Shown here: positions 31,327-61,999 of the stretch, in pieces
How the letters are laid out: each line of letters begins with the position of its first letter
Numbering within the stretch: position 1 is the stretch's first letter
Source of the DNA: Candidatus Hydrogenedentota bacterium
GTDB lineage: Bacteria; UBA8481; J006
NCBI GenBank assembly: GCA_003697085.1
Contig: RFFU01000074.1
Span: forward strand, 82,600 to 146,599
DNA: 64,000 nt
Reading direction: 5' to 3'
Notes under the pieces: generated by a model
Told to the model about the DNA's origin: nothing
Database searches by the model: none
The model's input: the letters and a program-made list of their open reading frames with translations, nothing else
Position numbers and translations under genes: made by a program

Positions 31327-32226
31327 ATGCCGAAAGGGTTCGAAAAACGTCTTTGGCGATGGGTCGAGAACACGCGCGCGGTGGGAAAGCAGGTTCTTGA
31401 CGATCATCTCTTCGGACATGCCGCGGAGATTGCGTTCTATGAGTTAATCGCGCTCGTGCCGCTCTTCGGTCTTCTGATGCAGTTGGTCAGTCTTCTTCCA
31501 AGACAGGGCGTGATGGATCGAGTCCTGGAGGTAATGGCGAGGTACATTCCGGCGCAGGCCGTGACTCTGATCGAGAACTGGCTTTCCGTTCCCAGTGCCA
31601 CCGGGAAGGCCTCGCTTCTTTCGGCCGGCGCGGTTGTGATGATCTGGGTCGGCTCGGCCGCCGTCGGGGCCTTCGTCGACGCGCTCGACAAAATCTATCA
31701 CCTGGAAGGGCGGATCAAGAGGCCGTTCGTCCACCGGGCGACGGTGCGTGTCACCTTCACGCTCTTCGGCGGGCTCGCCTTGCTCGTCCTCGTCTTTCTC
31801 CAGATCGTTGTTCCTCCGCTCCTGGAGTTCTTCCTCGAGGCCTTCCGGCTTGAGGCGGCCTGGGCCTGGGCGTGGCATTTCGTCCGCGGCCCCGTCGTCC
31901 TTCTCGGGATGGTTCTAGGTCTTTGTTGTTTCTACCATTTTCTCGAGCCCTTGGGGCTGCGGTGGAGGGATCACTTGCCGGGCGCCTTTCTCGGGACGAT
32001 GCTCTTTCTCATCAGCTCGGCGCTCTTCAGTCTCTATGTCTCGAACGTGGCGAACTTCGACGCGGTTTATGGAGGAATGGGGGCGCTGGTTGTTTTCCTC
32101 TTCTGGTTGCAATTCCTCAACCTCTCCGTTTTAATCGGCGCCTCCTGGAACGCGCAGTCGTGTGGTTCGGGAAGCGTTCCGTTGGGGCCGCCGGACAGCC
32201 CTCCCCGTTACAAGCCTCCGGTGTGA
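31327..32226 (+). CDS. YihY/virulence factor BrkB family membrane protein
   Basis: 6-TM protein with the conserved YihY N-terminal block LFGHAAEIAFYELIALVPLF. The ATG at 31327 is preferred over the ORF-track start at 31225. Confidence 0.7.
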   Translation: MPKGFEKRLWRWVENTRAVGKQVLDDHLFGHAAEIAFYELIALVPLFGLLMQLVSLLPRQGVMDRVLEVMARYIPAQAVTLIENWLSVPSATGKASLLSAGAVVMIWVGSAAVGAFVDALDKIYHLEGRIKRPFVHRATVRVTFTLFGGLALLVLVFLQIVVPPLLEFFLEAFRLEAAWAWAWHFVRGPVVLLGMVLGLCCFYHFLEPLGLRWRDHLPGAFLGTMLFLISSALFSLYVSNVANFDAVYGGMGALVVFLFWLQFLNLSVLIGASWNAQSCGSGSVPLGPPDSPPRYKPPV

Positions 32227-32371
32227 TCGGAGGAAAGCGGAGAAGCCGGGGAAAAGGGTTTCGCCGGGTGGGGGGAAGAGGTGAAACCGGGGGGGGAAGA
32301 GAACGGAGAGAGCGGTGCCGGTGGAGAAATGTGTTTAGGGAAGCGAGGACGGGGGGGCGGGAGGAAGAAAA

Positions 32372-33874
32372 ATGACGGACATCTTGAAGAAACGCGGCGC
32401 GGGGATCCTTCTGCACCCGACCTCGTTGCCCGGGCCCTATGGAATCGGGGAGATGGGAGAGTTCGCGTACGGCTTTCTCGAATTTCTTTCGCGCGCGGGC
32501 CAGTCTTTCTGGCAGACGCTTCCCTTAGGCCCGACGAGTTACGGCGATTCTCCGTATCAATGTTTTTCCGCTTCGGCGGGTAATCCGCTCCTCATTTCAC
32601 TCCGGCGCCTTGTGGAGGAGGGACTTCTCGAGGAAAAAGATCTCGCGTCGGATCCGGGAGTCGAGGCGGCGGTCGATTACGGAACGGTTATCCCGTGGAA
32701 GACGACGGTCCTGCGGAGGGCCTTTGAGCGGTGGCGGGGGCGTGGCGGCGCGGAGAGCGAGGAGTTTCTCCGATTCCGATCCGAGCAAGGGGAGTGGCTT
32801 TCGGAGTACGCGCTGTTCATGGCGATCAAGGATTCGCAAGAAGGACGAAGTTGGGTCGAATGGCCGGAGGAGTACCGAAAGCGGGAGCCGGCGGCCTTGG
32901 AAGCGGCGCGGAGCGAATTGGAAACCGGAATCCTCTTCCACGAATTCCTGCAGCACCTCTTTTTCCGGCAATGGTCCGATCTTCGCCGGGCCGCGAATGA
33001 AAGAGGAATCCGGATCATTGGAGATGCTCCGATCTTCGTCGCGCTCGACAGCGCGGACGTTTGGAGCCGGCAGGACCTGTTCTATCTCGACGACGAAGGC
33101 CGGCCGACCGTTGTGGCGGGGGTTCCTCCCGACTATTTCAGCGAGACGGGGCAGCGTTGGGGAAATCCGTTGTATCGTTGGGACCGCCTGGCGGCGGAGG
33201 GGTTTCGCTGGTGGAAGCGGCGGATCGAGGTTCTGTTGAAGATGGTGGATGTGATCCGGATCGATCATTTTCGTGGATTCGAGGCGTACTGGGAGATTCC
33301 CGCGACGGAGCCGACTGCGGTGAAGGGAAACTGGGTCAAGGTTCCAGGCGAAACCCTCTTTGCGAGCCTGAGGGAGTTGGGTGAGGTTCCGGTCATCGCG
33401 GAGAACCTCGGTGTGATTACGGAAGAGGTGGAACAGTTGCGGCGAAGAGCCGGGTTTCCCGGGATGAGCGTTCTTCAGTTCGCCTTTGAGGGACGCGATC
33501 CGGAGAATCCCTTTCTTCCGCACAACTGTGATCCGGAGACGGTGGTGTACACCGGAACTCATGATAACGACACGACGCGGGGGTGGTTTTCGGGGTTGAG
33601 CGCGGAGGATCGGGAATGGTTTTGGCGATATTCCGGAGCGGCGGCGGGTGAAGAGCCGGAGTGGGAGATGATTCGATTGGCGCAAGGATCGGTGGCGCGC
33701 CAGGCGATCATTCCGATGCAGGATTATCTCGGCTTGGGAAGCGAAGCGCGTATGAACTATCCGGGACGGAAGGGGGGGAATTGGACGTGGCGGTGTCGGG
33801 CGGGCGCATTCTCGGAGGCGTTGGCGGACCGAATCCGAGAAATCACGCACCGATACGGGCGGCTGAATGGGTAA
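32372..33874 (+). CDS. malQ: 4-alpha-glucanotransferase (amylomaltase, GH77)
   Basis: GILLHPTSLPGPYGIGEMG at the N-terminus. GH77 catalytic blocks IIGDAPIFV, RIDHFRGF and PVIAENLG are present. 500 aa. Confidence 0.92.
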   Translation: MTDILKKRGAGILLHPTSLPGPYGIGEMGEFAYGFLEFLSRAGQSFWQTLPLGPTSYGDSPYQCFSASAGNPLLISLRRLVEEGLLEEKDLASDPGVEAAVDYGTVIPWKTTVLRRAFERWRGRGGAESEEFLRFRSEQGEWLSEYALFMAIKDSQEGRSWVEWPEEYRKREPAALEAARSELETGILFHEFLQHLFFRQWSDLRRAANERGIRIIGDAPIFVALDSADVWSRQDLFYLDDEGRPTVVAGVPPDYFSETGQRWGNPLYRWDRLAAEGFRWWKRRIEVLLKMVDVIRIDHFRGFEAYWEIPATEPTAVKGNWVKVPGETLFASLRELGEVPVIAENLGVITEEVEQLRRRAGFPGMSVLQFAFEGRDPENPFLPHNCDPETVVYTGTHDNDTTRGWFSGLSAEDREWFWRYSGAAAGEEPEWEMIRLAQGSVARQAIIPMQDYLGLGSEARMNYPGRKGGNWTWRCRAGAFSEALADRIREITHRYGRLNG

Positions 33875-34011
33875 AGTGACGGAAGGGGAGATTGTCATCA
33901 AGGAAAAGAAAACGAGATTGGTTCAATGCCTCAAAGTTGCTTCGAAGTTGCAGAATGATGGGAATTGGAATTTGGAGGAAGAATCGGGTATCTGGGAAGG
34001 TGGAGTCGGAG

Positions 34012-34317
34012 TCAGGGGTTTTTGAGTTTCTCCTCGACACTGCGGATTTTCGCTTCAATTGATTCGGCGCGGTCGGTGCGCGTTCCCACGCGGATCGTCG
34101 TTGAGATGCGGGGCACGCCCATTCTGTGAACGGCTTCGTGGCAGGCTTTGACGACGCGGAAGACCTCGTCCCACTCCCCTTCGATGTTGGTTCCGTATCC
34201 GTGAAGACGGTACGTCAGACCCGAATCGCGAATGATCCTTTCGCATTCGGCGACATATCTCGAAAGAGAGACACCGACACCGATCGGAACAACACAGAGA
34301 TCGACGATGACTTTCAT
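34012..34317 (-). CDS. MTH1187/YkoF family protein (UPF0045, thiamine/ligand-binding ACT-like)
   Basis: 101 aa. MKVIVDLCVVPIG...YVAECERIIRDSGLTYRLHGYGTNIEGEWDEVFRVVKACHEA matches the YkoF/MTH1187 family. Confidence 0.8.
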   Translation of the reverse strand: MKVIVDLCVVPIGVGVSLSRYVAECERIIRDSGLTYRLHGYGTNIEGEWDEVFRVVKACHEAVHRMGVPRISTTIRVGTRTDRAESIEAKIRSVEEKLKNP

Positions 34318-34390
34318 AGAATATATTTTCTCACCTTTCCTCCCGGTAAAAAAGAAAAAAGAAGATATTCACTTTCGAAAAACGCCTTGT

Positions 34391-35413
34391 TCAGAATGTC
34401 GTGTCCCTTTGTATGAGCGATACCGGAAGGACATAATGGTATCGGCGGATTTTTTTACCGGCGATTATTTTGAGAAGAAGATCCGCGGCTTTATAGCCCA
34501 TTTGCCACGCAGGAACCCGGATGGTCGTTAATCCGATCGCCTGAGTGTAACGCCAACTCACATCGTTGTAGCCGACGATTCCGGCTTCTCCAGGAACGGA
34601 AAGGCCCGCCTCGGAAAGGATTTCCAGGAGAGGAAGTGCGAACTCGTCGATCGAAAGAAAAAAACCGGCGGTATGGGATTTCCTTTTGAGAATATTCCGG
34701 AGTTTCTGTAACGGGGCTTTACCCGATTCATCGACATTGACGAAAATGACCGGTTGAGGATCAAGTCCCTTTTGAAATCCGGCCAATTTTTGTTTTTGGC
34801 TGTAACTCGAAGAAAGAGAGAGAAAATAGTATTTTTCATAACGCCCCCGCTTCAGTACGCGTGCTGCTTGTATTCCTCCATCAAAGGCGTCGGCCATGAC
34901 AGAGGGAACCATGTCAAGAGAATCGTTGCGGAAATTGACGAACACGAACGGAAAAGACCGGGAGATTAATTGGCGCAGTTCACCGGGTTTTATTCTTTCT
35001 CCGAAAAATAGTCCCCCGTCGACCCGGCCTTCCCGGATCGCTCGAAGATAATTCGGGGTCTTATCAAGACGGGAAGTATTTTCTAGAGTGGAAGCAAGTT
35101 GAACGTAATAATTGGATTTTTCCAGTAAATGGGCCGCACCCGAAAGAACCAACGAATGGTACGGCGCCGCTGCTGAGTAAAGTTCGTCGCTTACGAAGAG
35201 AATGTTGGACGTTCTGCTCATTACCAGACCGCGGGCGGCCGCGTTGGGGTAATAGTGATTCGCTTTACAAACCTCAAGAACCCTTTTTCTCGTCTTGGGA
35301 GCAAACGGTACCTTTTTGTCTGGATCGTTGAGAATGCGCGAAACGGTCGAAATGGAAACTCCCGCTCTTTTTGCGATCTCTTTGATTCCTACACGCGTTC
35401 TCGATTGCCCCAT
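34391..35413 (-). CDS. LacI family transcriptional regulator
   Basis: N-terminal HTH IKEIAKRAGVSISTVSRILN followed by a periplasmic-binding-protein-like sugar-binding domain. 340 aa. Confidence 0.9.
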   Translation of the reverse strand: MGQSRTRVGIKEIAKRAGVSISTVSRILNDPDKKVPFAPKTRKRVLEVCKANHYYPNAAARGLVMSRTSNILFVSDELYSAAAPYHSLVLSGAAHLLEKSNYYVQLASTLENTSRLDKTPNYLRAIREGRVDGGLFFGERIKPGELRQLISRSFPFVFVNFRNDSLDMVPSVMADAFDGGIQAARVLKRGRYEKYYFLSLSSSYSQKQKLAGFQKGLDPQPVIFVNVDESGKAPLQKLRNILKRKSHTAGFFLSIDEFALPLLEILSEAGLSVPGEAGIVGYNDVSWRYTQAIGLTTIRVPAWQMGYKAADLLLKIIAGKKIRRYHYVLPVSLIQRDTTF

Positions 35414-35463
35414 AGTCTCATCCTGGTTCTCACCGCTATATCTTCAAACCTCATCATTCAAAA

Positions 35464-35476
35464 TGCAACGTTTGCA
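35464..35476. promoter_or_regulatory. candidate LacI-family operator (TGCAACGTTTGCA, near-palindrome with a CG centre)
   Basis: It lies 50 bp upstream of the LacI-family gene start, in the divergent region shared with the ABC transporter operon. It fits the LacI/GalR/CcpA operator consensus TGnAAnCGnTTnCA except for one missing base in the left half. Confidence 0.4.
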
Positions 35477-35867
35477 CTTTTTTGAGGATTGACGTGTTCC
35501 GGGTCCTTTCCGGCCCTTCGAACCGCAGTGTTTTCAAGGCGGAACACACAAAAATCCCCATTGCAACAATCTTTAATAGTAAGATGAGAGAAAAACAAGA
35601 AAAAAATGAAATTTAGGGAAGAACCAGGAAGGGAGGGCGATGTGACGCGGAACGATTCTCCTCTCATTTGATTTCACGGCGTTGAGGAGCCGGGATTCTC
35701 GATGACAGAAGATCGGGAAGGCCGCGCGGTGGCGTGCCGTTACAAAAAGAAATGATTCTGGCCGATATCCGAGACATTGAATAATATTTTTAGAGGAATT
35801 AAAACGTGCCAAGTAAAAAATACTGGAAGAGGTTCAGGTAAACGAATAAAATCACGGTGAGAGGGAA

Positions 35868-38531
35868 ATGGAACCCGGCGAGGACGTAAATTTAGGGAAC
35901 GAGCGTTGGCGCGCGTGGCAGATTCTGGGGTGGATCGGAATTGCTTTGGTAGCCTGTATTGTACTTCTCTTTGGTTCCCATAAAGAAACCGTTGTGGAGA
36001 AGGGCGTTGTCCTTCACTTGAAGGAACGTCCCGAGTTTAGTTACGACAATTTGGAAGTCCGCGCGGAAAAAGCGGTTTTTAAGGAGTTCATTAGAAGACA
36101 TCCGGAAATTACGCTTCGGAATACCTCGGACCTAAAGGTGCCGAATACGCCGAGCACCGAGCTGCTTTCCATCGCCGGCAACATCGCACCGGATGTCTTT
36201 CGCGTCTCCTTTTCCCAGATGCGGAGTTATATTGAAGAGGGCTTTGTCGCCGATATTACTGATGATTTGGACACGGAATATCGCAGGAATATCCCGGAGA
36301 AGATATGGAAGATTGCGGAGAAGGAGGGGCGCTATTACGGAATTCCCGCGGAGTATATGAACGCAGGATTGATTTACAACAAACAACTCGTTGCGGAAGC
36401 CGGGTTGGATCCTGAAAAGCCTCCCCAAACATGGGAGGAACTCTTTTATTGGGCGCAAGTGTTGACGGATCGGGACAAGATTATGCATTGGGGGGATAAA
36501 ACTTTGGTTGGGCGATGGGGACTGGGTTGGCTGCTGGGGGAAGCGATCGAAGATCGAAATTTTACGACGACGGCGGGAGAATTTTTCGCGAATTTGGTGT
36601 GGCAATATGGCGGAAAAATGGCTGTCGAAAAGGACGGGAAATACAGGGTGTCCTATGCCTCACCCGCCGGAAAAAAAGCTCTGGATCTGATCTGGAAATT
36701 CAAATGGGCACACTGGTTCAAGGATGAACAGGGCCGCGTTATTACGTTGCGGGATGCCTCCGGAAATGTGGTGGTGACCCGGGACCAGTTTGAAAAACTC
36801 GCCGCCCGTGGACCGTACAGAGACGAATACGGCCAAAAGTGGGATTTGCGAAAATTGGATTCGGAAAGAAGAATTATTCGCGGCGTGATCAATGGTAGCG
36901 CTTCCGGCGAAGAGGCCTTAGGAGGAACGAGTCGAGGGTTCGTGCTCTTTGCCGTGGGCGCCGAACGCTGCGCAATGGCGATCGGCTATCCGCGTAGAAA
37001 TTTGGTCAAAATGGTCCAAGGATACGGCCATAAGGACCTCTATGGTTTCGCCCCTTTGCCCGTCGTCAAAGGGGGAAGGCCTGCTAACATGGTTCGCGGT
37101 TTTGTTTATGCCGTGAATGCTCAGATTCGGGATCCGAAGATTCGAAAGGCGGCCGTAGAGTACATCAAATTCCTCTGCTCTGAAGAAGCGAATCGAATGC
37201 GGACGGAACAGTACCTCGCGGAGGACTGGGGTATCCTTGTCCGACCGGATTGGCTTAGAAAATTCGGGTACAACGATGTCTATGAACAGATTCCAAAGGA
37301 ATGGCGGGAGTCCTATCAAAAGATGATGGCGCATTCCCGTTTGGCTCCGCTCTTTGGAAAATACGCCCAAATCCAGTCGAACGAGCTCAAAGAACCGCTC
37401 CAAAGGATTCTGTTGGCGGATGCGGAAAAGCCGGATTTGATGCGGTTGTTGAAAACTTCCGAAAAACGGGCCAATACGATGGTGTTGGGAATGCGCGATC
37501 CAAAGGATATGGCCCGGAAACGACGGATCGCGATAATTGTGCTTTCGTTGGCCGTGTTGGTAATCGGCTTTATCGTTGTTCGGTATTTGAGAGAGCTGAC
37601 TCAGGCCTATTCTTCGGACACGGGGCCGGCCGCCGTCAGCGGCCGGAAAGGGGGGTGGACACATCACGTCGGAGCATGGATTTTCTTGATTCCGGCAGTT
37701 CTGACTATACTTCTTTTTCAGTACTATCCACTCCTTCGCGGCTCGGCGATGGCATTTTATGATTGGAAACTCCTGGGGCCGAAAACTTTTGTAGGACTCG
37801 ATAATTTTATCGAGGCCTTCAGCCAACCGCTCTTTTATAAGGTGGTCAAGAATACTTTGTATTACGTCGGGCTTACAATGTCCCTTGGATTTGTTGCACC
37901 GGTGATTCTCGCTATTCTCCTCGCGGAGGTCCCCAAGGGGAAGATATTCTTTCGTGTCATTTACTATATCCCGTACGTGACGACTGGGCTGGTTATTCTT
38001 TTTCTCTGGAAGATGCTTTACTATCCGGGAGAGAGCGGCTTTCTGAATACGTTGTTGGCCCATTTCGGTCTGGGCCCCTATCGCTGGCTTGAGGATCCGA
38101 AACTTGCGATGATTTGTGTTGTACTTCCGGGAATTTGGGCCGGTGCCGGTGCCGGATCGATAATTTATCTTGCAGCTCTTGCAGGAATCCCTGAAGAAGT
38201 TTATGAAGCAGCGGATCTTGACGGGGCCGGAGTCTTTGACAAGATCATCAAGATTACAATTCCGTTTCTCAAACCTTTGTTGATTATTAATTTCGTCGGG
38301 GCGTTTATCGGGGCGTTTCACGCGTCCGCCAACATATTAATGATGACAGGAGGAGGTCCGCTTAATGCAACGAATGTTTTGGGAACGGAGATTTTCATTA
38401 AATCGTTTATCTATTTGAAGTTTGGTTATGCTACCGCGCTCGCCTGGATCCTCGGAGCGTTCCTTATCGGATTTACACTGCAGCAACTAAAGATTATGAA
38501 GAATCTCGAATATCGTACGACGGGGAAATAG
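35868..38531 (+). CDS. carbohydrate ABC transporter component: fusion of a solute-binding protein domain with a MalF/UgpA-type permease
   Basis: N-terminal TM anchor, then an extracytoplasmic SBP-like domain of about 500 aa (family-1 SBP-like). A TM segment (IAIIVLSLAVLVIGFIVV) is followed by a 6-TM permease with the EAA loop EAADLDGAGVFDKIIKITIPFLKP. The 887-aa ORF is continuous. Confidence 0.8.
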   Translation: MEPGEDVNLGNERWRAWQILGWIGIALVACIVLLFGSHKETVVEKGVVLHLKERPEFSYDNLEVRAEKAVFKEFIRRHPEITLRNTSDLKVPNTPSTELLSIAGNIAPDVFRVSFSQMRSYIEEGFVADITDDLDTEYRRNIPEKIWKIAEKEGRYYGIPAEYMNAGLIYNKQLVAEAGLDPEKPPQTWEELFYWAQVLTDRDKIMHWGDKTLVGRWGLGWLLGEAIEDRNFTTTAGEFFANLVWQYGGKMAVEKDGKYRVSYASPAGKKALDLIWKFKWAHWFKDEQGRVITLRDASGNVVVTRDQFEKLAARGPYRDEYGQKWDLRKLDSERRIIRGVINGSASGEEALGGTSRGFVLFAVGAERCAMAIGYPRRNLVKMVQGYGHKDLYGFAPLPVVKGGRPANMVRGFVYAVNAQIRDPKIRKAAVEYIKFLCSEEANRMRTEQYLAEDWGILVRPDWLRKFGYNDVYEQIPKEWRESYQKMMAHSRLAPLFGKYAQIQSNELKEPLQRILLADAEKPDLMRLLKTSEKRANTMVLGMRDPKDMARKRRIAIIVLSLAVLVIGFIVVRYLRELTQAYSSDTGPAAVSGRKGGWTHHVGAWIFLIPAVLTILLFQYYPLLRGSAMAFYDWKLLGPKTFVGLDNFIEAFSQPLFYKVVKNTLYYVGLTMSLGFVAPVILAILLAEVPKGKIFFRVIYYIPYVTTGLVILFLWKMLYYPGESGFLNTLLAHFGLGPYRWLEDPKLAMICVVLPGIWAGAGAGSIIYLAALAGIPEEVYEAADLDGAGVFDKIIKITIPFLKPLLIINFVGAFIGAFHASANILMMTGGGPLNATNVLGTEIFIKSFIYLKFGYATALAWILGAFLIGFTLQQLKIMKNLEYRTTGK

Positions 38532-38535
38532 AGCG

Positions 38536-40854
38536 ATGCCAATCATTGCCAAGGTCGGCCGGAAGGATATCGGGGTTCGCTTTACGATTCTTGCCATTTA
38601 CCTGCTGTTGATCTTGGGAGGGATTACGATGGTGTATCCCTTCCTCCTAATGGTGAAAATTTCAATTTCATCCAAAATGGACAATGATGATTATGGATTG
38701 CCCCGCTTTCTTTACGATGAAAACCTCCTGATGGCGAAATACTTGAATGAAAGGCATTCCTACTGGACTGGGCCGATGGCGTTACGTTACCACCGTGACT
38801 ACGGCATCTGGAAAGATCTGATAACTCCTGTAGCTCAAAAAGTGTATCCGCTGGATGACTCCACCCGCGTTGATCGGATTCGAAAAGCTGCGGAAAAATT
38901 GAAAAACGATTTGGAGGCACGGATTCATCCGAAAGACCAAAGGTTGATTACCGCGAAAAACCTGATACTGAGTCATCTTCAACGTATTTTGGCGAGAAAA
39001 ACGCCTTATGACGACCCTCTTCTCACTCGGCTCTTTGAAAGAAATTATGTGGAATTGGGGGAAAGGCTGGGCGAAATAAGGGATCCGAAACATTCGTCCG
39101 TTCTCCGGATTATTCGAAAGGATATCAAGAATCTCGAAGCGTTACGTTCCCCGAAATTCGATCTGAATGACAAGAAGGTGATGGCGGATGTTCAACGGTT
39201 GGGAATTGAGTGGCTGAATTATAAAAAGACGCTTCCGTTGGAATTGAAACAAGTGAATTTTATGAACTACAGTAACAATGGGAAAAACCAACGGGCGTTT
39301 CAGGAGTTTGTTAAGAAAAAATACGGAGGGGATATTTCGAGGGTAAATCGAATTTACGAGGACGGTGTCACCTATTTTTCGGAAATTCTTGCCCCTCATG
39401 GAGGCAGTATCTTTGGTGTGGTCCGTTCTCGTTATTCTGCGAAGGATCGAGATTGGATCGCGTTTAATAAAACGTTGAAGGAAGAGGAATTCTGTGTCCG
39501 TTACTGGGAGGGAAATGAAGCGCGTTGGGGGGAATTTTTTGCCGATCAAGTGAAACGTTATGCCCTGAAAAATGCTCCGGAGAAGTACCATCGATGGGAG
39601 GCCTATTTCAATACGGAGTACAGCGTGGAAGCCATCAACGATATTTTGGGGACCTCTTTTATTCAGGCAAGTTGTCTCTCGCTTCCACTCCCTGACAAAG
39701 GATTGCTGAAAAATAGAGTCGTTCGCGGTATATGGAAAAGGTTTCTTCTGGAAAATCGGGAAAATCTCAATTTCCTCAGGATCAACGTTACAAAGAAACT
39801 TCAGGAGCGGTTTTCGGAATATCTTCAAAAAAAATATGGAACCGTCTCGCGGCTTAATCGGGTATTGTCCCGGGAATTGTCAGAGGGGGGGACGAAGTTT
39901 CGGAGGTTTGAAGATTATGAATTGGCCGCCAATCGCCCGTTGGAGACGATGGCGATGCGGAGAGATTGGGATGAATTTGTGCGGACTCAGTGTCCTATTG
40001 AATATATTCAATATTATTCCTACGAGGCGCGGTGGCGGGACTACCTGAGACAAAAATACGCGAAGATTGAGAACTTCAATAAAACTCTTAAAACACGGCG
40101 TTACCGGTCGTTCTCAGAGGTTCCAGCCCCCTTTGCAGAATATGACCTCTATGATTATCTCAAGCATAGAAAAGGGTTGCGTTGGCGTTTTGTATGGGCG
40201 AATTATCGGTATGCCTTGGATCGCCTCTTCTTTAATGGAAGGGCGGCCTATAATACTCTTGTCCTCGTGGCCTTATCCCTGTTTACTGCGCTGACGGTGA
40301 ATCCGCTTGCGGCTTATGCACTTTCGAGATTTCGTTTGAGTTACGCCCATAAAGTTCTCCTTTTCTTTTTGGCGACGATGGCGTTTCCCCCCGAGGTGAC
40401 GATGATTCCGAATTTCCTTTTGATAAAAGAATTGGGCCTCCTGAACTCGTACGCGGCTCTCGTGCTTCCCGGGATGGCGAATGGCTTTTCAATCTTTCTT
40501 CTGAAAGGGTTCTTTGACAGTATTCCGTTGAGTTTGTATGAGGCGGCAGAGCTTGATGGGGCCAACAATTTTCAAATGTTTTATAAAATCACACTTCCCT
40601 TGTCGAAACCTGTCTTGGCCGTCATTGCGTTGAACACGTTCATGTATGTCTACGGAAGCTACCTGTGGGCGTTGCTGATTTGTCCGGCCAGAAAATTTTG
40701 GACGATTATGGTTTTTGTTACACAATTTCAACAGGTGCAACTTCCTCATCAAACAATGGCGGCGTTGGTCCTGGCTGCATTGCCCCCCTTGATTGTCTTT
40801 GTGCTTTGCCAAAAGGTGATTATGCGCGGGATTGTCATTCCCCAGTCGAAGTGA
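38536..40854 (+). CDS. carbohydrate ABC transporter permease (MalG/UgpE-type) with a ~480-aa periplasmic insertion after TM1
   Basis: The C-terminal 270 aa are a canonical permease with the EAA motif YEAAELDGANNFQMFYKITLP. The N-terminal TM FTILAIYLLLILGGITMVYPFLLMV is followed by a long helical, Trp/Tyr/Arg-rich domain that is not recognisable. Confidence 0.8.
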   Translation: MPIIAKVGRKDIGVRFTILAIYLLLILGGITMVYPFLLMVKISISSKMDNDDYGLPRFLYDENLLMAKYLNERHSYWTGPMALRYHRDYGIWKDLITPVAQKVYPLDDSTRVDRIRKAAEKLKNDLEARIHPKDQRLITAKNLILSHLQRILARKTPYDDPLLTRLFERNYVELGERLGEIRDPKHSSVLRIIRKDIKNLEALRSPKFDLNDKKVMADVQRLGIEWLNYKKTLPLELKQVNFMNYSNNGKNQRAFQEFVKKKYGGDISRVNRIYEDGVTYFSEILAPHGGSIFGVVRSRYSAKDRDWIAFNKTLKEEEFCVRYWEGNEARWGEFFADQVKRYALKNAPEKYHRWEAYFNTEYSVEAINDILGTSFIQASCLSLPLPDKGLLKNRVVRGIWKRFLLENRENLNFLRINVTKKLQERFSEYLQKKYGTVSRLNRVLSRELSEGGTKFRRFEDYELAANRPLETMAMRRDWDEFVRTQCPIEYIQYYSYEARWRDYLRQKYAKIENFNKTLKTRRYRSFSEVPAPFAEYDLYDYLKHRKGLRWRFVWANYRYALDRLFFNGRAAYNTLVLVALSLFTALTVNPLAAYALSRFRLSYAHKVLLFFLATMAFPPEVTMIPNFLLIKELGLLNSYAALVLPGMANGFSIFLLKGFFDSIPLSLYEAAELDGANNFQMFYKITLPLSKPVLAVIALNTFMYVYGSYLWALLICPARKFWTIMVFVTQFQQVQLPHQTMAALVLAALPPLIVFVLCQKVIMRGIVIPQSK

Positions 40855-40924: not shown

Positions 40925-42004
40925 ATGGTTTCGGAAAATAGGTCTTTTATGGAAAACCTGGCTGTCTTGAAAAGGGCAAGAACCCGTTCCATCAGTCCAG
41001 AGAATTTTTCCGGGGAGAAAGGAAAGGGCGGAATGGCCACGGAAGGAACGGGTAAAGAATGTGCACGTGATTTAGGACAGGGCTGGAAGATATCACCGAG
41101 TGTTGTGATTGGTTCGGGGACCACGTTTGTGTTGGCCGAAATAGAAGGTCCCGGGGTGATTCAGCAGATTTGGCTTACGCCAACCGGGAATTGGCGCCAT
41201 CAAATCCTCCGGATTTTCTGGGATGATCAAGAAGTTCCGTCGGTTGAATCGCCCGTGGGGGATTTTTTCGCTATGGGGTGGGGGAGATTCGCCCCGATTT
41301 CCTCGTTGGCTGTCTGTGTTAATCCGGGAAGTGCCTTCAATTGTTATTGGGCGATGCCATTTCGAAGGAAATGTCGCATTACTTTGGAGAATATTTCGGA
41401 GGAGGATGTTGTTCTTTATTATCAGATTAACTATTCATTGGAGGATGTTTCCGAAGAGTGCGCGTACTTTCATGCGCAGTTTCGTCGCACGAATCCCCTG
41501 CCCTATAAACAGGTTTATACCATTTTAGACGGTGTCCGCGGCCGCGGACATTATGTGGGGACTTATATGGCCTGGGGTGTCAATAACAATGGATGGTGGG
41601 GGGAAGGGGAGATTAAGTTTTATTTGGACGGGGACGGGAAATTTCCAACGATTTGCGGAACCGGAACGGAGGACTACTTTTGCGGTTCCTATAATTTTGA
41701 AAACCGTGAGACGAAACAGTACCAGGAGTTTTCGACACCTTATTCCGGCTTGCACCAGGTAATTCGTCCCGACGGCGTCTATCAGTCTCAAACGCGTTTT
41801 GGGCTCTATCGCTGGCATCTTGTTGATCCGATCCGTTTTGAACAGGATCTGCAGGTTACCATACAAGCGTTGGGATGGCGAGGAACATCGGGGCGTTACC
41901 TTCCGCTCCAGGATGATATCGCTTCCGTGGCGTATTGGTATCAGACTTTACCGACGGCTCCTTTTCCGAGACTCCCAGACAAAGATTACCTGGAGGTGAT
42001 ATGA
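40925..42004 (+). CDS. DUF2961 family protein (glycoside hydrolase family GH172-like)
   Basis: About 360 aa with a beta-rich composition. Blocks GPGVIQQIWLT, YYQINY and GTGTEDYF are recalled from DUF2961/GH172 proteins. The ATG at 40925 is preferred over the ORF-track start at 40832. Confidence 0.55.
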   Translation: MVSENRSFMENLAVLKRARTRSISPENFSGEKGKGGMATEGTGKECARDLGQGWKISPSVVIGSGTTFVLAEIEGPGVIQQIWLTPTGNWRHQILRIFWDDQEVPSVESPVGDFFAMGWGRFAPISSLAVCVNPGSAFNCYWAMPFRRKCRITLENISEEDVVLYYQINYSLEDVSEECAYFHAQFRRTNPLPYKQVYTILDGVRGRGHYVGTYMAWGVNNNGWWGEGEIKFYLDGDGKFPTICGTGTEDYFCGSYNFENRETKQYQEFSTPYSGLHQVIRPDGVYQSQTRFGLYRWHLVDPIRFEQDLQVTIQALGWRGTSGRYLPLQDDIASVAYWYQTLPTAPFPRLPDKDYLEVI

Positions 42005-46268: not shown

Positions 46269-47930
46269 ATGAGTGAGCCTGTCTTCAGCATAGGAGTTGA
46301 TTACGGGACAAACGCGGTTCGCGTTTTGGTGGTGCGGTGCGATACAGGCGAGGAAATCGGTGCAGCGGTCTACGATTACAAGCATGGTGAAAAGGGGATA
46401 TTGGCGGGGAAAGGGGAAATGCACCTGGCGCGTCAGAGTCCCCGTGATTATATCGACGGACTGAACGAGGCCTTGGGGAAGGCTCTGGCTCAGGCAGATG
46501 GCGCCGAGGCCTTTTCCAGAGAGCGGATCGTCGGTATCGGCGTTTCTGCTACAGCAAGTACTCCGGTGCCCGTGGACAGAGAGGCTGTTCCTTTGGGTGT
46601 ACGGGACGAGTTTCAAGAGGATTTGTCAGCGCAAGCCTGGCTCTGGAAGGACCACACCAGTATAGCGGAGGCGGAGGAGATAGTAGAGGTTGTCAAAAAG
46701 AAGGAATTACCGTATCTGAAATTTTACAGCGGCTTGATGTCTCCGGAGTGGTTTTGGCCGAAGGCGTTGAAGTTTATTCGGTCGGCACCGGAAGTGGTCC
46801 GGAAGGCCACCGCGGCTTGGTTGGAATTGACAGATCTGGTACCGGCTTACCTCACCGGGGTGTCGGTTGCTGATGATGTCGTTCGGGGAATCTGCTCCGC
46901 CGGCTTCAAAGGAATGTACTCAGAAGAGTGGGGAGGGTATCCGCCTAAGGATTTTTTGAAGAACTTTTCGGAAGAAGTGGCGCGATTGGCAGGGAGAAGT
47001 CCGGTTTTCAAGGGCCCTGGGGAGAGTGTCGGATCGTTATCGGATGAGATGGCCTCACGGTACGGATTATCCCGAAAGGTGCAGGTCAGTGCGGGAATCA
47101 TCGATGCTCATTCCGGCGCCTTGGGAAGCGGAGTCGGAGAACGCTCCCTGGTCAGTGTTATGGGGACTTCCTCGTGTAACATCGGTTTGATTCCTTACGA
47201 GCGGTATCGCGGACCGATTCCGGGAATTTCCGGCGTCATCAAAGACGGTGTTGTTCCGGGGATGTATGCTGTTGAATCGGGTCAGGGAGCGGTTGGTGAT
47301 ATCTTTGCTTGGTTTGTCGAACGGATCCTCGGCGGAAGGTGCAGTCACGAAGAACTTACCGAACGGGCGCGGAATATGGGACCCGGTGAGACGGGATTGG
47401 TGGCTCTGGATTGGCACAACGGAAATCGCAATGTTCTGATGGATATGGAATTATCCGGGTTGATCGTCGGACTGCGGCTGGATACGACTGTGGAGCAGAT
47501 CTACCGGGCTTTGATTGAAGCAACGGCTTTCGGGCTGAGGACGATCATCGAGCGAAAAAAGGAATACGGCTATGAAGTGGAGAATTTGATAGCGTGTGGT
47601 GGGATCGCCAAAAAAAACGACCTGGTGTGCCGGATCTACGCGGATGTTCTTGGAGTTCCTGTTCACGTGGCCGGATCGAGCGAGGCGTGTGCGTTGGGGG
47701 CAGCCGTCTGCGGCGCTGTAGCCGGGGGTGCGTTTCAAAGCTTATCGGCCGCTCAGGAGAAGATGGTCCCGAAGGCGCGAGGAAGTTTTGAACCGAATCT
47801 TGGACAAAGGGGAATCTGGGATGAGGTGTATGGGATTTATCGCGATCGTTACGAACATTATTCACGCGGCGGCGGCGGCGGAGACATCATGAAGTCTCTT
47901 TTGGCACTGCGTGACGAAGCGCAAGCGTAA
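46269..47930 (+). CDS. araB: ribulokinase (FGGY carbohydrate kinase family, AraB-type)
   Basis: FSIGVDYGTNAVRVLVVRCDTGEEIGAAVYDY and LWKDHTSIAEAEEI parallel E. coli AraB [23 protein letters not shown] and LWKDHTAVEEAEEI. 553 aa. AGGAGG RBS upstream of the ATG at 46269. Confidence 0.85.
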   Translation: MSEPVFSIGVDYGTNAVRVLVVRCDTGEEIGAAVYDYKHGEKGILAGKGEMHLARQSPRDYIDGLNEALGKALAQADGAEAFSRERIVGIGVSATASTPVPVDREAVPLGVRDEFQEDLSAQAWLWKDHTSIAEAEEIVEVVKKKELPYLKFYSGLMSPEWFWPKALKFIRSAPEVVRKATAAWLELTDLVPAYLTGVSVADDVVRGICSAGFKGMYSEEWGGYPPKDFLKNFSEEVARLAGRSPVFKGPGESVGSLSDEMASRYGLSRKVQVSAGIIDAHSGALGSGVGERSLVSVMGTSSCNIGLIPYERYRGPIPGISGVIKDGVVPGMYAVESGQGAVGDIFAWFVERILGGRCSHEELTERARNMGPGETGLVALDWHNGNRNVLMDMELSGLIVGLRLDTTVEQIYRALIEATAFGLRTIIERKKEYGYEVENLIACGGIAKKNDLVCRIYADVLGVPVHVAGSSEACALGAAVCGAVAGGAFQSLSAAQEKMVPKARGSFEPNLGQRGIWDEVYGIYRDRYEHYSRGGGGGDIMKSLLALRDEAQA

Positions 47931-48438: not shown

Positions 48439-51400
48439 ATGATGTTAATCTTTTTATTTAAGATGGTGAAAAAGAGAAAAAGAGCAACACCTGCTTTTAT
48501 AAGTACCTGGTGTTGGCCGTGCGCCCTGGTGTCCTTTCTTCTCGGAAACTTGATTTTTGGTGTCGCGCCTCCGGCTCGTGCCGCGATAGAAGTCTTCAAT
48601 ATTACGCCGACGATTGTGAAGGCGGGAAGCGGGGCGCCGATAATTATTTCGGGGCAGAATTTTTCCTCGACAACGCCGGTGAAAATCGGTGACAAACCTG
48701 TGTCCCCGGTGGTGTATCTCAATTCGCATACGCTCAAGGTCTCGGTACCGACCTCGCTTGACTCAGGTGTCTATTCGATTACGGTGGGTTCGGGGGCGGA
48801 TTCCGCGACGCTCGTGAATCCGCGGCTCCACGTGCTTTCTTTCGCGGCGGAGGTGGCCTATATCGCCGGAGGGAACGACACCCTGGCTGTCGTCAACCTT
48901 GATGACGGCTCGATCATTACGACCGTGTCGATGCCGGGAATCCTTGGAGGTTCCAACCAGCTTCCTGTTGGAATGGCGGCCGCCCCGGACGGAAACAAGA
49001 TTTTTATCGCCTCCTTTGATGGGGCGTTTCCCAGAAAAATTTACGTGTTTTCGACCGTTTCGAATACTATTGTGGATGAGATTTCCGTCAGTGATCCGGT
49101 TCGGATCCGTATGTTTCCGGGGGGAGAAACATTGGCGGTCATCAGTAATGATCCACCGAATAATGTTCACTTCTTTCGGTTGTCGGATACGACGGAAGTG
49201 TACAGTGGCGGGAGCGTCAGCTGGAACGGCACCGATCTGGCGATGCATCCATCCGGAAAGTACTTTTATGCCATCTATTCAAGTGGAAGCTATATTTCTG
49301 TCATTGATGCCAGGGATGGAACGACGGTGGACAGCATCTCTGTTACTTACAGTGGTGTCGGACCGCATTTCTTGACGATCTCGCCGACGGGGGATTCTCT
49401 GTATGTCAGTTTTTCGGAACAGAATGCGTTCGCGGCGGTGGGGCTAACCGACACGGGGATGATTCGAGGAGACACCGCGGTGATTCCGAAGGCGACGGGG
49501 GTGATGAACAATGCCGTGATGGTAATGAATCTGGATGGAACAAAGCTCTTTTATGGCGGGAATCGGGTTGCGTCGTATGGGGTTACGAATCTAAAGACGG
49601 GAGTCGCGTCGACGATTACAGGAACTTGGAATAATACGAATGGATCTGCAAGGAGTTCCGATGGTCAATACATCTGGGCGACGAATTATTCGACGGAAAC
49701 ATTGAACAAGATTCGAATTTCGGATGATGTCGAGGAAAGTACGATAGACATCACGTCGGCAGGGGGGATCGGAGGGATGGGAATTCTTACGCTGCCGCGA
49801 GTGATTCCGATGAACGATTCGATGATACCGTATATTCAATCGGTATCGCTTTATGTTCCCGTAGGCGGCGAAGTGACGATCAACGGTTTTTTTGACAGTG
49901 CGTCACACTATGGTTTCACCTCCACGGATACGGTTTGGATTGGAGGAATTCCGGTGGAGACAATGACGGTTCTCGGCCAAACTCTGATCAAGGCGACGTT
50001 ACCGTCGTCGATCCCCGCTGATACAGTGGTGGATGTTCTGGTCAAGAATGTCGTTTCGGGCATGACGTCCGATTCTCTTGGGTTTCAACCTCAGGATACG
50101 GTGACGGTGACCGGGCCGGCGCCGACGATTACGGCGATCGTTCCTGACAGCGGTTATTCTGGGGCCGTTACGCCGGTGACCATCACGGGGACCAACTTTG
50201 ATCCGGTGTTGACAAAAGCCTATATTGAAGGAACGGAACTGGCGAACGTAACCTATGTGTCACCAACGCAACTTACAGCGGAGATTCCCAATGGACAAAG
50301 TCCAGGAGTGCACAACATCAGTGTGGCGAACTATCCGGTAAATGAACAGTGGGATACGCTGTGGAACGCCTTTACGGTCAATCAGACACAGATGGAAATT
50401 TCCGGAGCGCTTCCAAGAAATCCCGTGCTCAAAGGCGACTCCTTTTGGATGTGGATCTACGGTTCAGGTTTCGACACGTCCATGGTTCCGACGGTTACAC
50501 TCGGAGGGGTCGCGCTGAGTCGAGTCAAAGTCCCAAATACCAAGGTGATCACGGCTTTTTATGACGGTGTAACGCCGCTGGCTACGGGATGGAACAACGT
50601 GACCGTGAGTTATGGGGCGTTTCCAGATAGTCAGGCGCAGTTGGTTAATGCTGTCGAGGTTTTCGACAGCGGCGCACAGTACATTTATCTGCTTCCTTAC
50701 CTCGATGCTTCCTCCGATTCCCTGTATGTTGTCGATGTCGCCAAGAATGAAGTTGTCGACACCATAGAAGTAGGAAATGTCGGCTTTGATGGAGCGTTGG
50801 ACATTTCTCCGGACGGAGAATATTTGTTGGTTACGGCGTCCGATGGAAAGACCTTGAAGGTCGTTCGCTTGTCGGACAATACAATTGTTTCAACGAAAAC
50901 GTTTTCACAAGTTGTCACGTGCGGGGTCTTTTCGCAGGATGGTTCGGCTGTTTACGTAGGGTACGCTCCTGTTTCGGCTTCCGCCGCGATCAATAAATAT
51001 TCCTTTCCTGGTTTCTCCCTCTTGAAATCCTATCCGACGTCGGGGTCGGTTCTGGACTTTGTGGCAATCTCCCCGTTGGAAGATTATGCTGCTTATGGTC
51101 GGAAATGGGATCCCACGATGAAACTGATGGATTTATCCACGGGAGCCGAGACGATACTGGCGGGAACATATGTCAACGGTTCGGACCGGGATATTTATTT
51201 TTCTCCGGACGGATCGAAACTCTATGTTACCAGTGTTAACGGGGGAGCGACGACGGATTCGCTCGTCGTCGTCGATGTGGCGACAAACACCGTCCTTTAT
51301 GATACGCTTCTTCCTGTGTTGACGGGGGGACAGAACGGCGCCTACAGCCTCGTGTTTCATCCATCAGGCGACACCTACTTTGTGTCCTCTTTCGGCGGCT

Positions 51401-58419: not shown

Positions 58420-59588
58420 TGGAGAACATGGCAACAAGAAACAAACGGATGCTGCTTTCGGCGTTATTATTCCTTTTGATGTTAATATCAGCGACGGGAG
58501 GAGCCGGCCCGGCGAAGGCCTTGACCCCCGATCCTCTGGCAGGGACATCCGGGGTTCAGTTTTTGAATTTCGGGCGCGGCCCGCAGATTATCGCGCTGGG
58601 AGAGAGCTACAATGCGCGTGTATTAGGAGCGGCCGGAATATTTGGGAATCCCGCGTCGATTAGTTTTGCTCAAGACGCTGAAATGATGTTCAGTTTTAAC
58701 CGAATGATAGCGGACATAAATCACAGTCTCTTTTCTTATGTCTCGCCGAATATGATCCATGATCGCTATTCTTTCGCCCTGGGCGCAATTTATACATCGT
58801 TCGGTCGTATTACTGCTCGGGATGCAACAGGGTTCGAACTGGGAAGGAAGCAAGCGTATTCGGCAGCGGTGTTGGCGACAATCTCCGCGAAGTATAATGA
58901 ACATTTTTCGGCGGCCGTTACGTTCAAGGGGATTGGAGAGAGGATCGCGGATGTATACGGGACGGGAATCGCTTTTGACGGAGGCATATATTTCCGGAAC
59001 GTGTTGATTCCGAATCTCGATTTCGGTGCATCGGTGCAAAACATCGGACCTGGTTTGACATTCGACAAAGAAAGCACGCCGTTAACACTGATTTACGGCG
59101 GGGGCTTTTCCTACCGGCCGCCGCGGATCCCGTTGCGCATTTCTCTGGATTTTCAAAAACCTCGCGATGAGAAAACCTCCGCCATGCTGGGGGCGGAGTG
59201 GGACGTGAGGAATCTTCTTTACCTTCGTGGTGGGTGGCGGGAGCGTAGTGGCGCGCGAAGCCATTTTTCGGCCGGAATGGGAATCAGGGTCAATAACGTG
59301 GTTCTGGATTATTCGTATGTCAGGTCGGAGTTTTTAGGCAATACACACAGCATTGCGCTCCGGTATGAGTTTTGGCCGAAGAAGCATTCAGGGGAATCCA
59401 AAAGATACCGTACGGTGGAAAAGGCGGGAAAATATGTGACCGTTGAAGAATCGCCTGGTTCGAGAAGTAATAACTCCGAAAAAACGGAAAAGTCGGTTTC
59501 GAAAAAGGAATCGACCGGAAATGAAAAAACGTCGGCACCGACGCCGCAAAAAACTCCCAGCGAGGGCGAGGATCTATTGGAATTCTGA
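58416..59588 (+). CDS. outer-membrane beta-barrel protein translationally coupled to the giant T9SS cargo gene (PorP/SprF- or PorV-like position); Lys/Glu/Ser-rich C-terminal tail
   Basis: The ATG at 58419 overlaps the upstream TGA stop (TGATG). N-terminal signal peptide LLSALLFLLMLISATGGAGPAKA. Alternating amphipathic beta-strand pattern. The barrel ends in the aromatic-terminal strand HSIALRYEF, followed by a ~70-aa low-complexity tail. Confidence 0.65.
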   Translation: MMENMATRNKRMLLSALLFLLMLISATGGAGPAKALTPDPLAGTSGVQFLNFGRGPQIIALGESYNARVLGAAGIFGNPASISFAQDAEMMFSFNRMIADINHSLFSYVSPNMIHDRYSFALGAIYTSFGRITARDATGFELGRKQAYSAAVLATISAKYNEHFSAAVTFKGIGERIADVYGTGIAFDGGIYFRNVLIPNLDFGASVQNIGPGLTFDKESTPLTLIYGGGFSYRPPRIPLRISLDFQKPRDEKTSAMLGAEWDVRNLLYLRGGWRERSGARSHFSAGMGIRVNNVVLDYSYVRSEFLGNTHSIALRYEFWPKKHSGESKRYRTVEKAGKYVTVEESPGSRSNNSEKTEKSVSKKESTGNEKTSAPTPQKTPSEGEDLLEF

Positions 59589-59592
59589 AAAG

Positions 59593-59621
59593 CGGCTGAT
59601 TAAAACATTTGAAATCAGCCG
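59593..59621 (+). terminator. hairpin downstream of the cargo/OMP gene pair (cggctgat-N13-atcagccg)
   Basis: 8-bp perfect stem seen directly, 5 nt after the stop at 59588. There is no canonical U-tract, so it is weak as an intrinsic terminator. Confidence 0.25.
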
Positions 59622-59692
59622 ATCAATCGAAAAAATACCGGTATCCTTTTTGGGAAAAGAGAAGAAATCATTCATCAAAGGGAGATTAAAGA

Positions 59693-61939: not shown

Positions 61940-61999
61940 GGGGCCGCATGGAGGAAGGCGTACAATAAAAACAAGAAGCGAAAGGAGGAAGGGAGAAAA

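Follow-up and report, generated by a model that had tools for sequence, protein, structure and literature searches.

Background

Is a pair of genes in which a sugar receptor is built into one permease subunit, and a large periplasmic domain into the other, a genuine type of importer, and what might the second domain be? The question is raised by a 64,000-nucleotide stretch of a Candidatus Hydrogenedentota genome (assembly GCA_003697085.1, contig RFFU01000074.1, positions 82,600 to 146,599; hereafter the window, with positions counted from its first nucleotide). In it, two open reading frames (ORFs) on the + strand, separated by a gap of 4 nt, encode proteins of 887 and 772 amino acids (proteins 1 and 2; Table 1). 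An initial annotation, made by reading the sequence, described them as an atypical carbohydrate ATP-binding cassette (ABC) importer: a substrate-binding protein (SBP) fused to a MalF-type permease, followed by a MalG-type permease with a large insert in its first periplasmic loop, with no ATPase in the cluster.

What is known of the mechanism of ABC importers comes from systems with free or lipid-anchored receptors and from two models with fused receptors, OpuA and GlnPQ. Here we find that the gene pair is probably the membrane part of a type I, CUT1-like ABC sugar importer with a built-in receptor, and that its architecture is a conserved and widespread two-gene module, not peculiar to this genome. 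Judged from sequence comparison, the insert of protein 2 is a tandem array of a helical module of ~75 amino acids, homologous to the non-catalytic segment ~153-218 of the beta-galactosidases of glycoside hydrolase family 42 (GH42).

A receptor-permease fusion and its enlarged partner

Both products carry the Pfam domain BPD_transp_1 above its gathering score of 26.4 bits (44.8 bits in protein 1, at residues 679-867, and 53 bits in protein 2, where it covers only residues 604-765). The EAA coupling motif (EAA---G) is kept in both subunits, as EAADLDGA in protein 1 (38205-38228) and as EAAELDGA in protein 2 (40540-40563). The best NCBIfam similarities, all of them below the equivalog cut-offs, are to UgpA, GlcT and MalF for protein 1 and to UgpE, MalG and GlcU for protein 2. 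By their NCBI names, the database proteins identical to the two products place the window in a metagenome-assembled genome (MAG) of Candidatus Hydrogenedentota.

The N-terminal part of protein 1 matches SBP_bac_1 (72 bits) and SBP_bac_8, both above their Pfam gathering scores. With these domains and BPD_transp_1 in one ORF, and with the EAADLDGA motif located, the annotated in-frame fusion of a binding protein to a MalF-type permease was borne out. An AlphaFold2 (AF2) model of residues 1-600, built on a 22-sequence alignment (pLDDT 75.9, pTM 0.72), consists of a helix at residues 10-35, a two-lobe alpha/beta domain at 47-540 and a long helix at 545-582; a sub-insert of the binding domain, at residues 293-356, is of low confidence and disordered in the model. 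When the binding domain was compared with the PDB by Foldseek, full-length SBPs were matched with E-values of 1e-18 to 1e-15 and target-normalised TM-scores of about 0.75. The matches include 5ci5, 5f7v, 5ysf and 7bvt, as well as the Bdellovibrio MalE domain 6ffl, and the ligands of the matched proteins include cycloalternan, sophoro-, manno-, cello- and arabino-oligosaccharides, and maltose. On the model, the binding domain is thus an ordinary, complete MalE-type oligosaccharide-binding fold. The initial annotation had called both extra domains uncharacterised; this still applies to the insert of protein 2, which no curated model matches, but no longer to the binding domain. Some homologous fusions (L008, 7379-9922; L010, 7206-9956; L036, 1490-4360) have CxxC...CxxC zinc-ribbon-like insertions in the binding domain, which the window protein does not have.

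Hydropathy analysis of protein 1 revealed a hydrophobic segment at residues ~17-37, a strong transmembrane (TM) segment at ~553-573 and then a 6-TM core. The first of these had been read as an N-terminal TM anchor. The hydrophobic segment is certainly present, but its nature as an anchor is questionable: the homologues of protein 1 mostly begin with classical signal peptides, and for this reason it may be a cleavable signal peptide instead. The second, the linker TM helix, was aligned in 12 of the 12 fusion homologues compared, and a single added TM is exactly what joining a periplasmic domain to an N-in 6-TM core requires. An extracytoplasmic position of the binding domain fits this hydropathy profile, on which the predicted topology is based (N-terminal segment, linker TM and N-in core). 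The core itself matches NCBIfam UgpA (residues 604-877 of protein 1 to positions 15-288 of the 295 in the profile), and neither this alignment nor the hydropathy profile revealed in it an insertion like the second periplasmic loop (P2) of MalF.

In protein 2, similarity to UgpE/MalG covers residues 572-767, and hydropathy places TM1 at residues ~17-40 and the next TM at ~573-596. The first periplasmic loop (P1) is therefore ~525 amino acids long, and exceeds an ordinary P1 loop by roughly 480 amino acids. An N-in topology fits the basic N-terminus and the basic stretch after TM2. Pfam, NCBIfam and hydropathy thus agree on a MalG-type permease with a greatly enlarged first periplasmic loop, as had been annotated.

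Table 1. Features of the gene pair and of the neighbouring operon genes (nucleotide positions in the window; aa, amino acid residues of the protein concerned)
Feature	Position	Strand	Evidence or remark
LacI-family regulator, divergent	34391..35413	-	Pfam LacI + Peripla_BP_3; RbsR/CcpA-like below equivalog cut-offs
Protein 1, 887 aa, binding domain + UgpA/MalF-type permease	35868..38531	+	Pfam; identity to NCBI MAG and Logan proteins; homologues
N-terminal hydrophobic segment, aa ~1-37, signal peptide or signal anchor	35868..35978	+	hydropathy peak aa 14-43; AF2 helix 10-35
Predicted periplasmic MalE-type oligosaccharide-binding domain, aa ~47-540	36006..37487	+	AF2 model, Foldseek
Extra linker TM helix, aa ~553-573	37524..37586	+	hydropathy maximum 2.93; AF2 helix 545-582
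UgpA/MalF-type 6-TM core of protein 1	37635..38531	+	NCBIfam UgpA, BPD_transp_1, EAA motif
Protein 2, 772 aa, UgpE/MalG-type permease with expanded loop	38536..40854	+	BPD_transp_1, UgpE/MalG similarity, homologues
TM1 of protein 2, aa ~17-40, after basic cytoplasmic N-terminus	38584..38655	+	hydropathy; conserved MVYPFLLM motif
Predicted periplasmic insert, aa ~45-570, all-helical repeat domain	38668..40245	+	
Lineage-specific helical sub-insert, aa ~95-240	38818..39255	+	gapped in P0030-P0032; AF2 helices, low to moderate confidence
Repeat module 1, aa 242-340, contains FQEFVKKKYGGDISRVN	39259..39555	+	module HMM E 1.6e-12
Repeat module 2, aa 343-418, degenerate	39562..39789	+	module HMM E 5e-3, weak
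Repeat module 3, aa 413-497, contains FSEYLQKKYGTVSRLN	39772..40026	+	module HMM E 7.5e-13; PDB GH42 ~153-224 profile match
Repeat module 4, aa 487-573, contains WRDYLRQKYAKIENFN	39994..40254	+	module HMM E 2.2e-11; Pfam GH42 match
UgpE/MalG-type core of protein 2, TM2-TM6	40252..40854	+	Pfam, NCBIfam, EAA motif
Cytoplasmic GH172 enzyme, 359 aa, probable exo-alpha-D-arabinofuranosidase	40926..42004	+	Pfam DUF2961 323 bits
Hypothetical protein, 402 aa	42300..43508	+	between GH172 and isomerase genes
L-fucose/D-arabinose-isomerase-family protein, 487 aa	44790..46253	+	Pfam Fucose_iso_N1/N2/C; start from Logan gene call
Ribulokinase, FGGY family	46269..47930	+	NCBIfam NF003154 552 bits vs 428-bit cut-off; Logan gene call

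Repeat modules in the expanded loop

The initial annotation described the insert as Trp/Tyr/Arg-rich and of unrecognised family. The first description is right for Arg (10.6%) and Tyr (6.7%) but not for Trp, which makes up merely 2.3%; Lys is abundant as well (8.2%). As to the second, no model in Pfam or NCBIfam and no solved structure was found to cover the repeat domain, and Foldseek gave no structural match better than E 2.5 for the insert as a whole; yet the insert contains four tandem modules related to GH42. These were delimited with a hidden Markov model (HMM) derived from the recurring motif F..[FY]L..KYG.[IV]..LN; after one iteration it recognised three of the four copies at E-values of 1e-11 to 1e-12. 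The sub-insert that precedes module 1 (residues ~95-240) is restricted to two proteins, that of the window and its closest relative, P0029.

The link to GH42 was found in two ways. A profile made from five inserts was compared with the PDB sequences, and it matched GH42 beta-galactosidases at ~153-224 only, with E-values from 4e-7 to 2e-5 (4e-7 for 9ta3 and 8e-6 for 1kwg); weaker matches of this profile fall on the corresponding segment in a few further TIM-barrel glycosidases. The Pfam model Glyco_hydro_42, in turn, scores 30.8 bits in protein 2, where residues 496-533, in module 4, align to profile positions 150-191. The module shared by GH42 and the insert is ~60-75 amino acids long, with the pattern F..WL...YG.I..LN..W, and this shared segment explains the Pfam Glyco_hydro_42 matches on these permeases. 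Besides the window protein, related locus L001 (8421-10298; 43.4 bits) exceeds the gathering score of that model (21 bits).

When every ORF in the window and in 83 related loci was considered, the module was found in expanded permeases only. One further protein, P0173 (1115 amino acids), has the module at residues ~863-981 without any permease or SBP domain, and because of it the module may, on sequence grounds, have other contexts besides permeases. The module is a candidate for a new domain-family entry, the definition of which would stop the flagging of these permeases as GH42.

Family size, distribution and gene pairing

A word-indexed homologue search with the insert alone returned 5 proteins, and an exhaustive HMMER search was needed to reveal the family. 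Among representative clusters at the 50% identity level, the insert profile matched 556 clusters at E<=1e-3, of which 142 also pass E<=1e-30; most of the matched proteins are 620-640 amino acids long and are aligned from residue ~44. In 122 complete representatives, the median start of the permease core is residue 437 (5-95% range 381-615), and the insert is 375-525 amino acids long across the family, so that protein 2 of the window, the core of which starts at residue 570, is a long variant. The module HMM detected 2-9 modules, with a mode of 4-5, in all 154 family representatives examined. A look-up of the clusters returned generic names only, such as 'multiple sugar transport system permease'.

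In a scan of one genome per species with the full-length alignment, at least 506 loci were confirmed. The best 80 of these belong mostly to Victivallales/Lentisphaeria, Kiritimatiellia, Verrucomicrobiota, Planctomycetota and Armatimonadota, and also include Firestonebacteria, Cloacimonadota and a few others; several genomes give two loci each. About 500 or more loci were found in a metagenome scan seeded with the fusion.

The two genes of the window are regularly found together elsewhere. Of 83 expanded permeases, at least 58 are directly preceded by an SBP-permease fusion of 800-1215 amino acids, the remainder being mostly contig ends or failures of the distance rule. Starting from the fusions, an expanded permease follows in 45 of the 64 metagenome loci with enough downstream sequence, and repeat modules were detected in 44 of these 45; the other 19 fusions have no partner permease within 6 kb. 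Orthologous fused systems, which the initial annotation proposed to look for in other genomes, are thus widespread. The departure from the canonical arrangement that it had pointed out is real; it is not, however, limited to one genome, and SBP-permease fusions as such have published precedents (PMC6906923; PMC3971661).

Solitary members of the family were also seen. About 30% of the metagenome-sampled fusions are partnerless within 6 kb and stand among unrelated genes, such as those for GGDEF proteins, a ClpB-like protein, an M48 peptidase or a pyridoxal phosphate (PLP) enzyme; the solo fusions are L100, L105, L107-L110, L112-L114, L117, L124, L127, L131, L145, L149, L150, L161 and L163. Expanded permeases occur as orphans in L060 (9998-11887), L076 (9998-11884) and L073 (4844-6739), where they adjoin housekeeping genes (that for the CCA-adding enzyme, or gyrB). 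Either half may serve more than one system, or the two may come together in trans.

A working model and its alternatives

In our working model, protein 1 would be exported through its N-terminal signal peptide or anchor, with the binding domain displayed in the periplasm, and the linker TM would return the chain to the cytoplasm before the UgpA/MalF-type core. Proteins 1 and 2 would form a MalFG-like heterodimer, and the receptor would be tethered 1:1 to the translocator, as in the MalE-MalF fusion of Bdellovibrio (PMC6906923). The helical domain of protein 2 would then lie beside the tethered binding domain and might serve it as a docking cradle or guide, a role that we propose tentatively and hold to have somewhat less than an even chance of being correct. 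It is favoured because in E. coli the N-lobe of MalE is contacted and held by P1 of MalG and P2 of MalF (PMC6906923), and because the MalF-type core in the window is without a P2-like loop.

Because both subunits keep the EAA coupling helix, the pair would have to be driven by a MalK/MsmK-type ATPase, and in the model this is a dimer encoded elsewhere in the genome. In this family the ATPase is normally encoded elsewhere, and ATPase-like ORFs are rare near the related loci. In at least one relative, L011, a MalK-type ATPase (ABC_tran + OB_MalK + TOBE_2) is encoded directly downstream, which supports the idea of a shared MsmK-like ATPase put forward in the initial annotation. One ATPase shared among several sugar ABC systems is a well-known arrangement.

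Several observations weigh against this model. A six-frame motif scan of the 64-kb window found no ORF with both Walker A and LSGGQ, in agreement with the statement of the initial annotation that the cluster is without an ATPase. A basic cluster, ARKRR (residues 548-552, 37509-37523), stands just before the linker TM and is conserved in 12 of the 12 aligned fusions; its predicted location, on the side of the periplasm, goes against the positive-inside rule and is unexpected in the topology given above. The AF2 model of the insert, made from a 5-sequence alignment, is of moderate quality only (pLDDT 63), and the cradle role is drawn by analogy. Some fusions and some expanded permeases are encoded alone. 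Finally, at least one locus, L041 (7976-11988), is unfused, with an SBP of 423 amino acids, a MalF-type permease of 304 and an expanded MalG-type permease of 621, and because of this locus the insert is not strictly tied to a fused receptor.

The best-surviving alternative, though still an unlikely one, is that the repeat domain is a glycan-binding or guiding module, or a stalk spanning the periplasm, and not a docking cradle; the array, by picking up long oligosaccharides or by reaching the wall or outer membrane, would supply the tethered receptor. The richness of the domain in Arg, Lys and Tyr is in its favour, and so is the variation from 2 to 9 modules between relatives, as expected of an extensible array. 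The family is concentrated in polysaccharide-degrading phyla of the Planctomycetes-Verrucomicrobia-Chlamydiae (PVC) group, its loci often adjoin glycoside hydrolase genes (GH172 here, GH94 in L003), and the expanded permease can go with an unfused SBP, as L041 demonstrates. Against it, neither Pfam nor structure comparison found any similarity of the insert to a carbohydrate-binding module or a known lectin fold, and sugar binding is not known for the homologous GH42 segment.

A broader conception is rated lower still, as a rather improbable one: the receptor and the repeat domain together could be an unrecognised periplasmic 'head' on MalFG-type importers, in which the array of 2-9 modules would thread or bind long oligosaccharides; the two halves might also pair combinatorially. 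Because many fusions and some expanded permeases are encoded alone, one expanded permease and one ATPase might serve several fusions that differ in specificity. Such a head may be characteristic of PVC-group and allied bacteria.

Far less probable than either of these is that the insert is a periplasmic GH42-like beta-galactosidase, so that protein 2 would both cleave and import its substrate. Automatic pipelines could by mistake give the name 'beta-galactosidase' to these permeases. What they have in common with the enzymes is only a non-catalytic segment of ~60 amino acids. Profile positions ~148-213 of GH42 alone are matched, and repeatedly, each repeat falling on the same segment, and no complete catalytic domain was recovered. 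The catalytic residues of the Thermus enzyme, Glu141 and Glu312 (PMC4016535), flank the matched segment and lie outside it, and for this reason the insert is not considered a glycosidase; the AF2 model, moreover, is all-helical and without a (beta/alpha)8 barrel. GH42 enzyme identity of the insert was rejected on both counts.

Equally improbable is a role of the pair as a membrane sensor that signals sugar availability through the tethered binding domain. The lack of an ATPase in the cluster would suit a sensor, and two solo members of the family (L109, L117) adjoin a GGDEF or cyclase gene; however, both subunits have the EAA motif and full permease cores, a MalK-type ATPase adjoins the pair in L011, an output domain is absent, and the context is a catabolic operon.

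There is next to no chance that the fusion is an artefact in which an error removed the stop codon between separate SBP and permease genes, as the initial annotation allowed: although the source is a MAG and L041 does carry the two as separate genes, a missed stop is ruled out because the identical 887-amino-acid protein is encoded in the independent Logan assembly of run SRR7905022, and because full-length fusions of 800-1200 amino acids, aligned end to end and including an extra TM helix that is sensible only in a fusion, recur in well over 100 independent loci from many phyla.

Comparison with known importers

The fusion of a receptor to a permease is already known. MalE is fused to MalF in the maltose/maltodextrin transporter of Bdellovibrio bacteriovorus (PMC6906923), and fusions of substrate-binding to transmembrane domains are functional in other ABC importers, namely OpuA and GlnPQ of Lactococcus lactis (PMC3971661; PMC11065425). 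The Bdellovibrio protein resembles protein 1 in belonging to the CUT1/MalFGK2-like family, in its N-terminal MalE-type domain and in its 1:1 ratio of receptor to translocator. However, the core of protein 1 is of the short 6-TM UgpA type, without the MalF-P2 loop, its probable substrate differs, and we found no report of an expanded MalG-type partner in Bdellovibrio. OpuA and GlnPQ are similar to the window system in that a covalent link holds the receptor on the permease, with the ATPase as a subunit of its own; they belong to compatible-solute and amino-acid families, and have homodimeric TM domains with two or four receptors. The window system, in contrast, would have a MalF/MalG-type heterodimer, a single receptor, and a different large periplasmic domain on the second subunit.

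A large periplasmic permease domain that engages the binding protein, as proposed here, has a parallel in MalF-P2 and MalG-P1 of E. coli, and it is the P1 loop of MalG, the one that is expanded in the window, that cross-links to the N-lobe of MalE. MalF-P2 is an Ig-like domain of ~180 amino acids, situated on MalF between TM3 and TM4, whereas the window has its domain, a predicted all-helical tandem repeat of 375-525 amino acids in the family, between TM1 and TM2 of the MalG-type subunit. Homology of the insert to MalF-P2 was accordingly rejected. GH42 beta-galactosidases (1kwg, 9ta3) have the segment ~153-218, situated between their two catalytic glutamates, in common with the insert module; in the insert this non-catalytic segment alone is present, tandemly repeated, with no barrel or catalytic residues (PMC4016535).

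In the literature we found no description of a MalG-type subunit with a GH42-derived tandem array of 375-525 amino acids in its P1 loop, nor of an expanded permease that pairs systematically with a fused receptor, nor of a PVC-wide distribution of such a pair. The expanded MalG-type partner is thus apparently undescribed. The gene pair would represent a third design, in the well-studied maltose-type family, with one receptor tethered to a heterodimeric translocator and a domain of 375-525 amino acids on the partner subunit. It seems to be widely used for sugar uptake in Lentisphaerota, Kiritimatiellia, Verrucomicrobiota, Planctomycetota, Armatimonadota and related uncultured phyla, which are major polysaccharide degraders with poorly known uptake machinery. 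In short, the pair is a good target for structural and mechanistic work and a case for corrected annotation, and the general view of how ABC importers function is not overturned by it.

Operon context and probable cargo

D-arabinofuranosyl glycans are an unusual substrate, known mainly from mycobacterial cell walls, and the operon suggests that this Hydrogenedentota bacterium may feed on them. The gene order is a divergent LacI-type gene, the genes for proteins 1 and 2, and those for a GH172 enzyme, a hypothetical protein of 402 amino acids, an isomerase and a ribulokinase (Table 1). The GH172 gene starts with an ATG at 40926 behind an AAGGAGG ribosome-binding site, and the same gene call was made in the Logan assembly. 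Its product, in which no signal peptide was found, shares 60% identity over 351 aligned columns (E 9e-139) with 8ic8, the PDB entry of ExoMA1, which is an intracellular exo-alpha-D-arabinofuranosidase from Microbacterium arabinogalactanolyticum (PMC10509167). The isomerase matches L-fucose isomerases and the D-arabinose isomerase 3a9r in the PDB. For the 402-amino-acid ORF there was no match in Pfam, NCBIfam or the PDB sequences.

In the scheme proposed for D-arabinan use, D-arabino-oligosaccharides are imported by an ABC transporter, cleaved by an intracellular GH172 enzyme and converted by an isomerase and a kinase to D-ribulose-5-phosphate (PMC10509167). Because the operon fits this scheme, and no L-ribulose-5-phosphate epimerase is recognisable in it, its gene content points to alpha-D-arabinofuranosyl oligosaccharides as the cargo, to which we give an even chance. 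After import, the GH172 enzyme would release D-arabinose from the D-arabino-oligosaccharides in the cytoplasm, the FucI-like isomerase and the ribulokinase would take it on to D-ribulose-5-phosphate, and the divergent LacI-type repressor would control the pathway. Three points speak against this substrate: the score of the isomerase is far below the FucI equivalog cut-off; the GH172 family also contains alpha-D-fructofuranosidases (7v1v); and neither an endo-D-arabinanase of GH183 (DUF4185) nor a GH116 exo-beta-D-arabinofuranosidase was found among the neighbouring proteins scanned, a subset of the window ORFs.

In the locus of M. arabinogalactanolyticum, too, a sugar ABC importer goes with an intracellular GH172 enzyme and with an isomerase and a kinase (PMC10509167). 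The SBP of its transporter is encoded by a separate gene, MIAR_33310, whereas that of the window is fused, and its host belongs to the Actinobacteria and not to the Hydrogenedentota.

From its position, the product of the LacI-type gene is the probable regulator of the operon. Scans for promoters and terminators gave results at or below shuffle expectation, and no inverted repeat was found in the regulatory region. A near-palindrome, TGCAACGTTTGCA, at 35464-35476, resembles a LacI-family operator, and precedes the lacI-like gene by ~50 nt and the transporter by ~390 nt; a scan of the window with the consensus was not significant.

Surroundings of the operon

Upstream of ~34 kb the G+C content is ~0.58-0.60; beyond it, as far as the end of the window, it drops to ~0.46-0.54, the change falling at the boundary between the intervals 32001-34000 and 34001-36000. 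This junction is not chimeric, because it is present in the independent Logan assembly, and the region from ~34 kb may be an acquired carbohydrate-utilisation island. Within the higher-GC part, a MalQ-type gene for a GH77 4-alpha-glucanotransferase (32372-33874, +) lies shortly before the lacI-like gene; it probably has nothing to do with the operon. On the other side, the operon is directly followed by 48439-58419 (+), which encodes a protein of 3326 amino acids with TIG domains, beta-propeller matches and a weak C-terminal sorting domain of the type IX secretion system (T9SS) type. It is followed by genes for a hypothetical protein (58416-59588), a GH31 enzyme (59693-61939) and a GDSL hydrolase (62000-62644), and the proteins encoded at 48439-62644 could represent the extracellular part of the same glycan-utilisation system.

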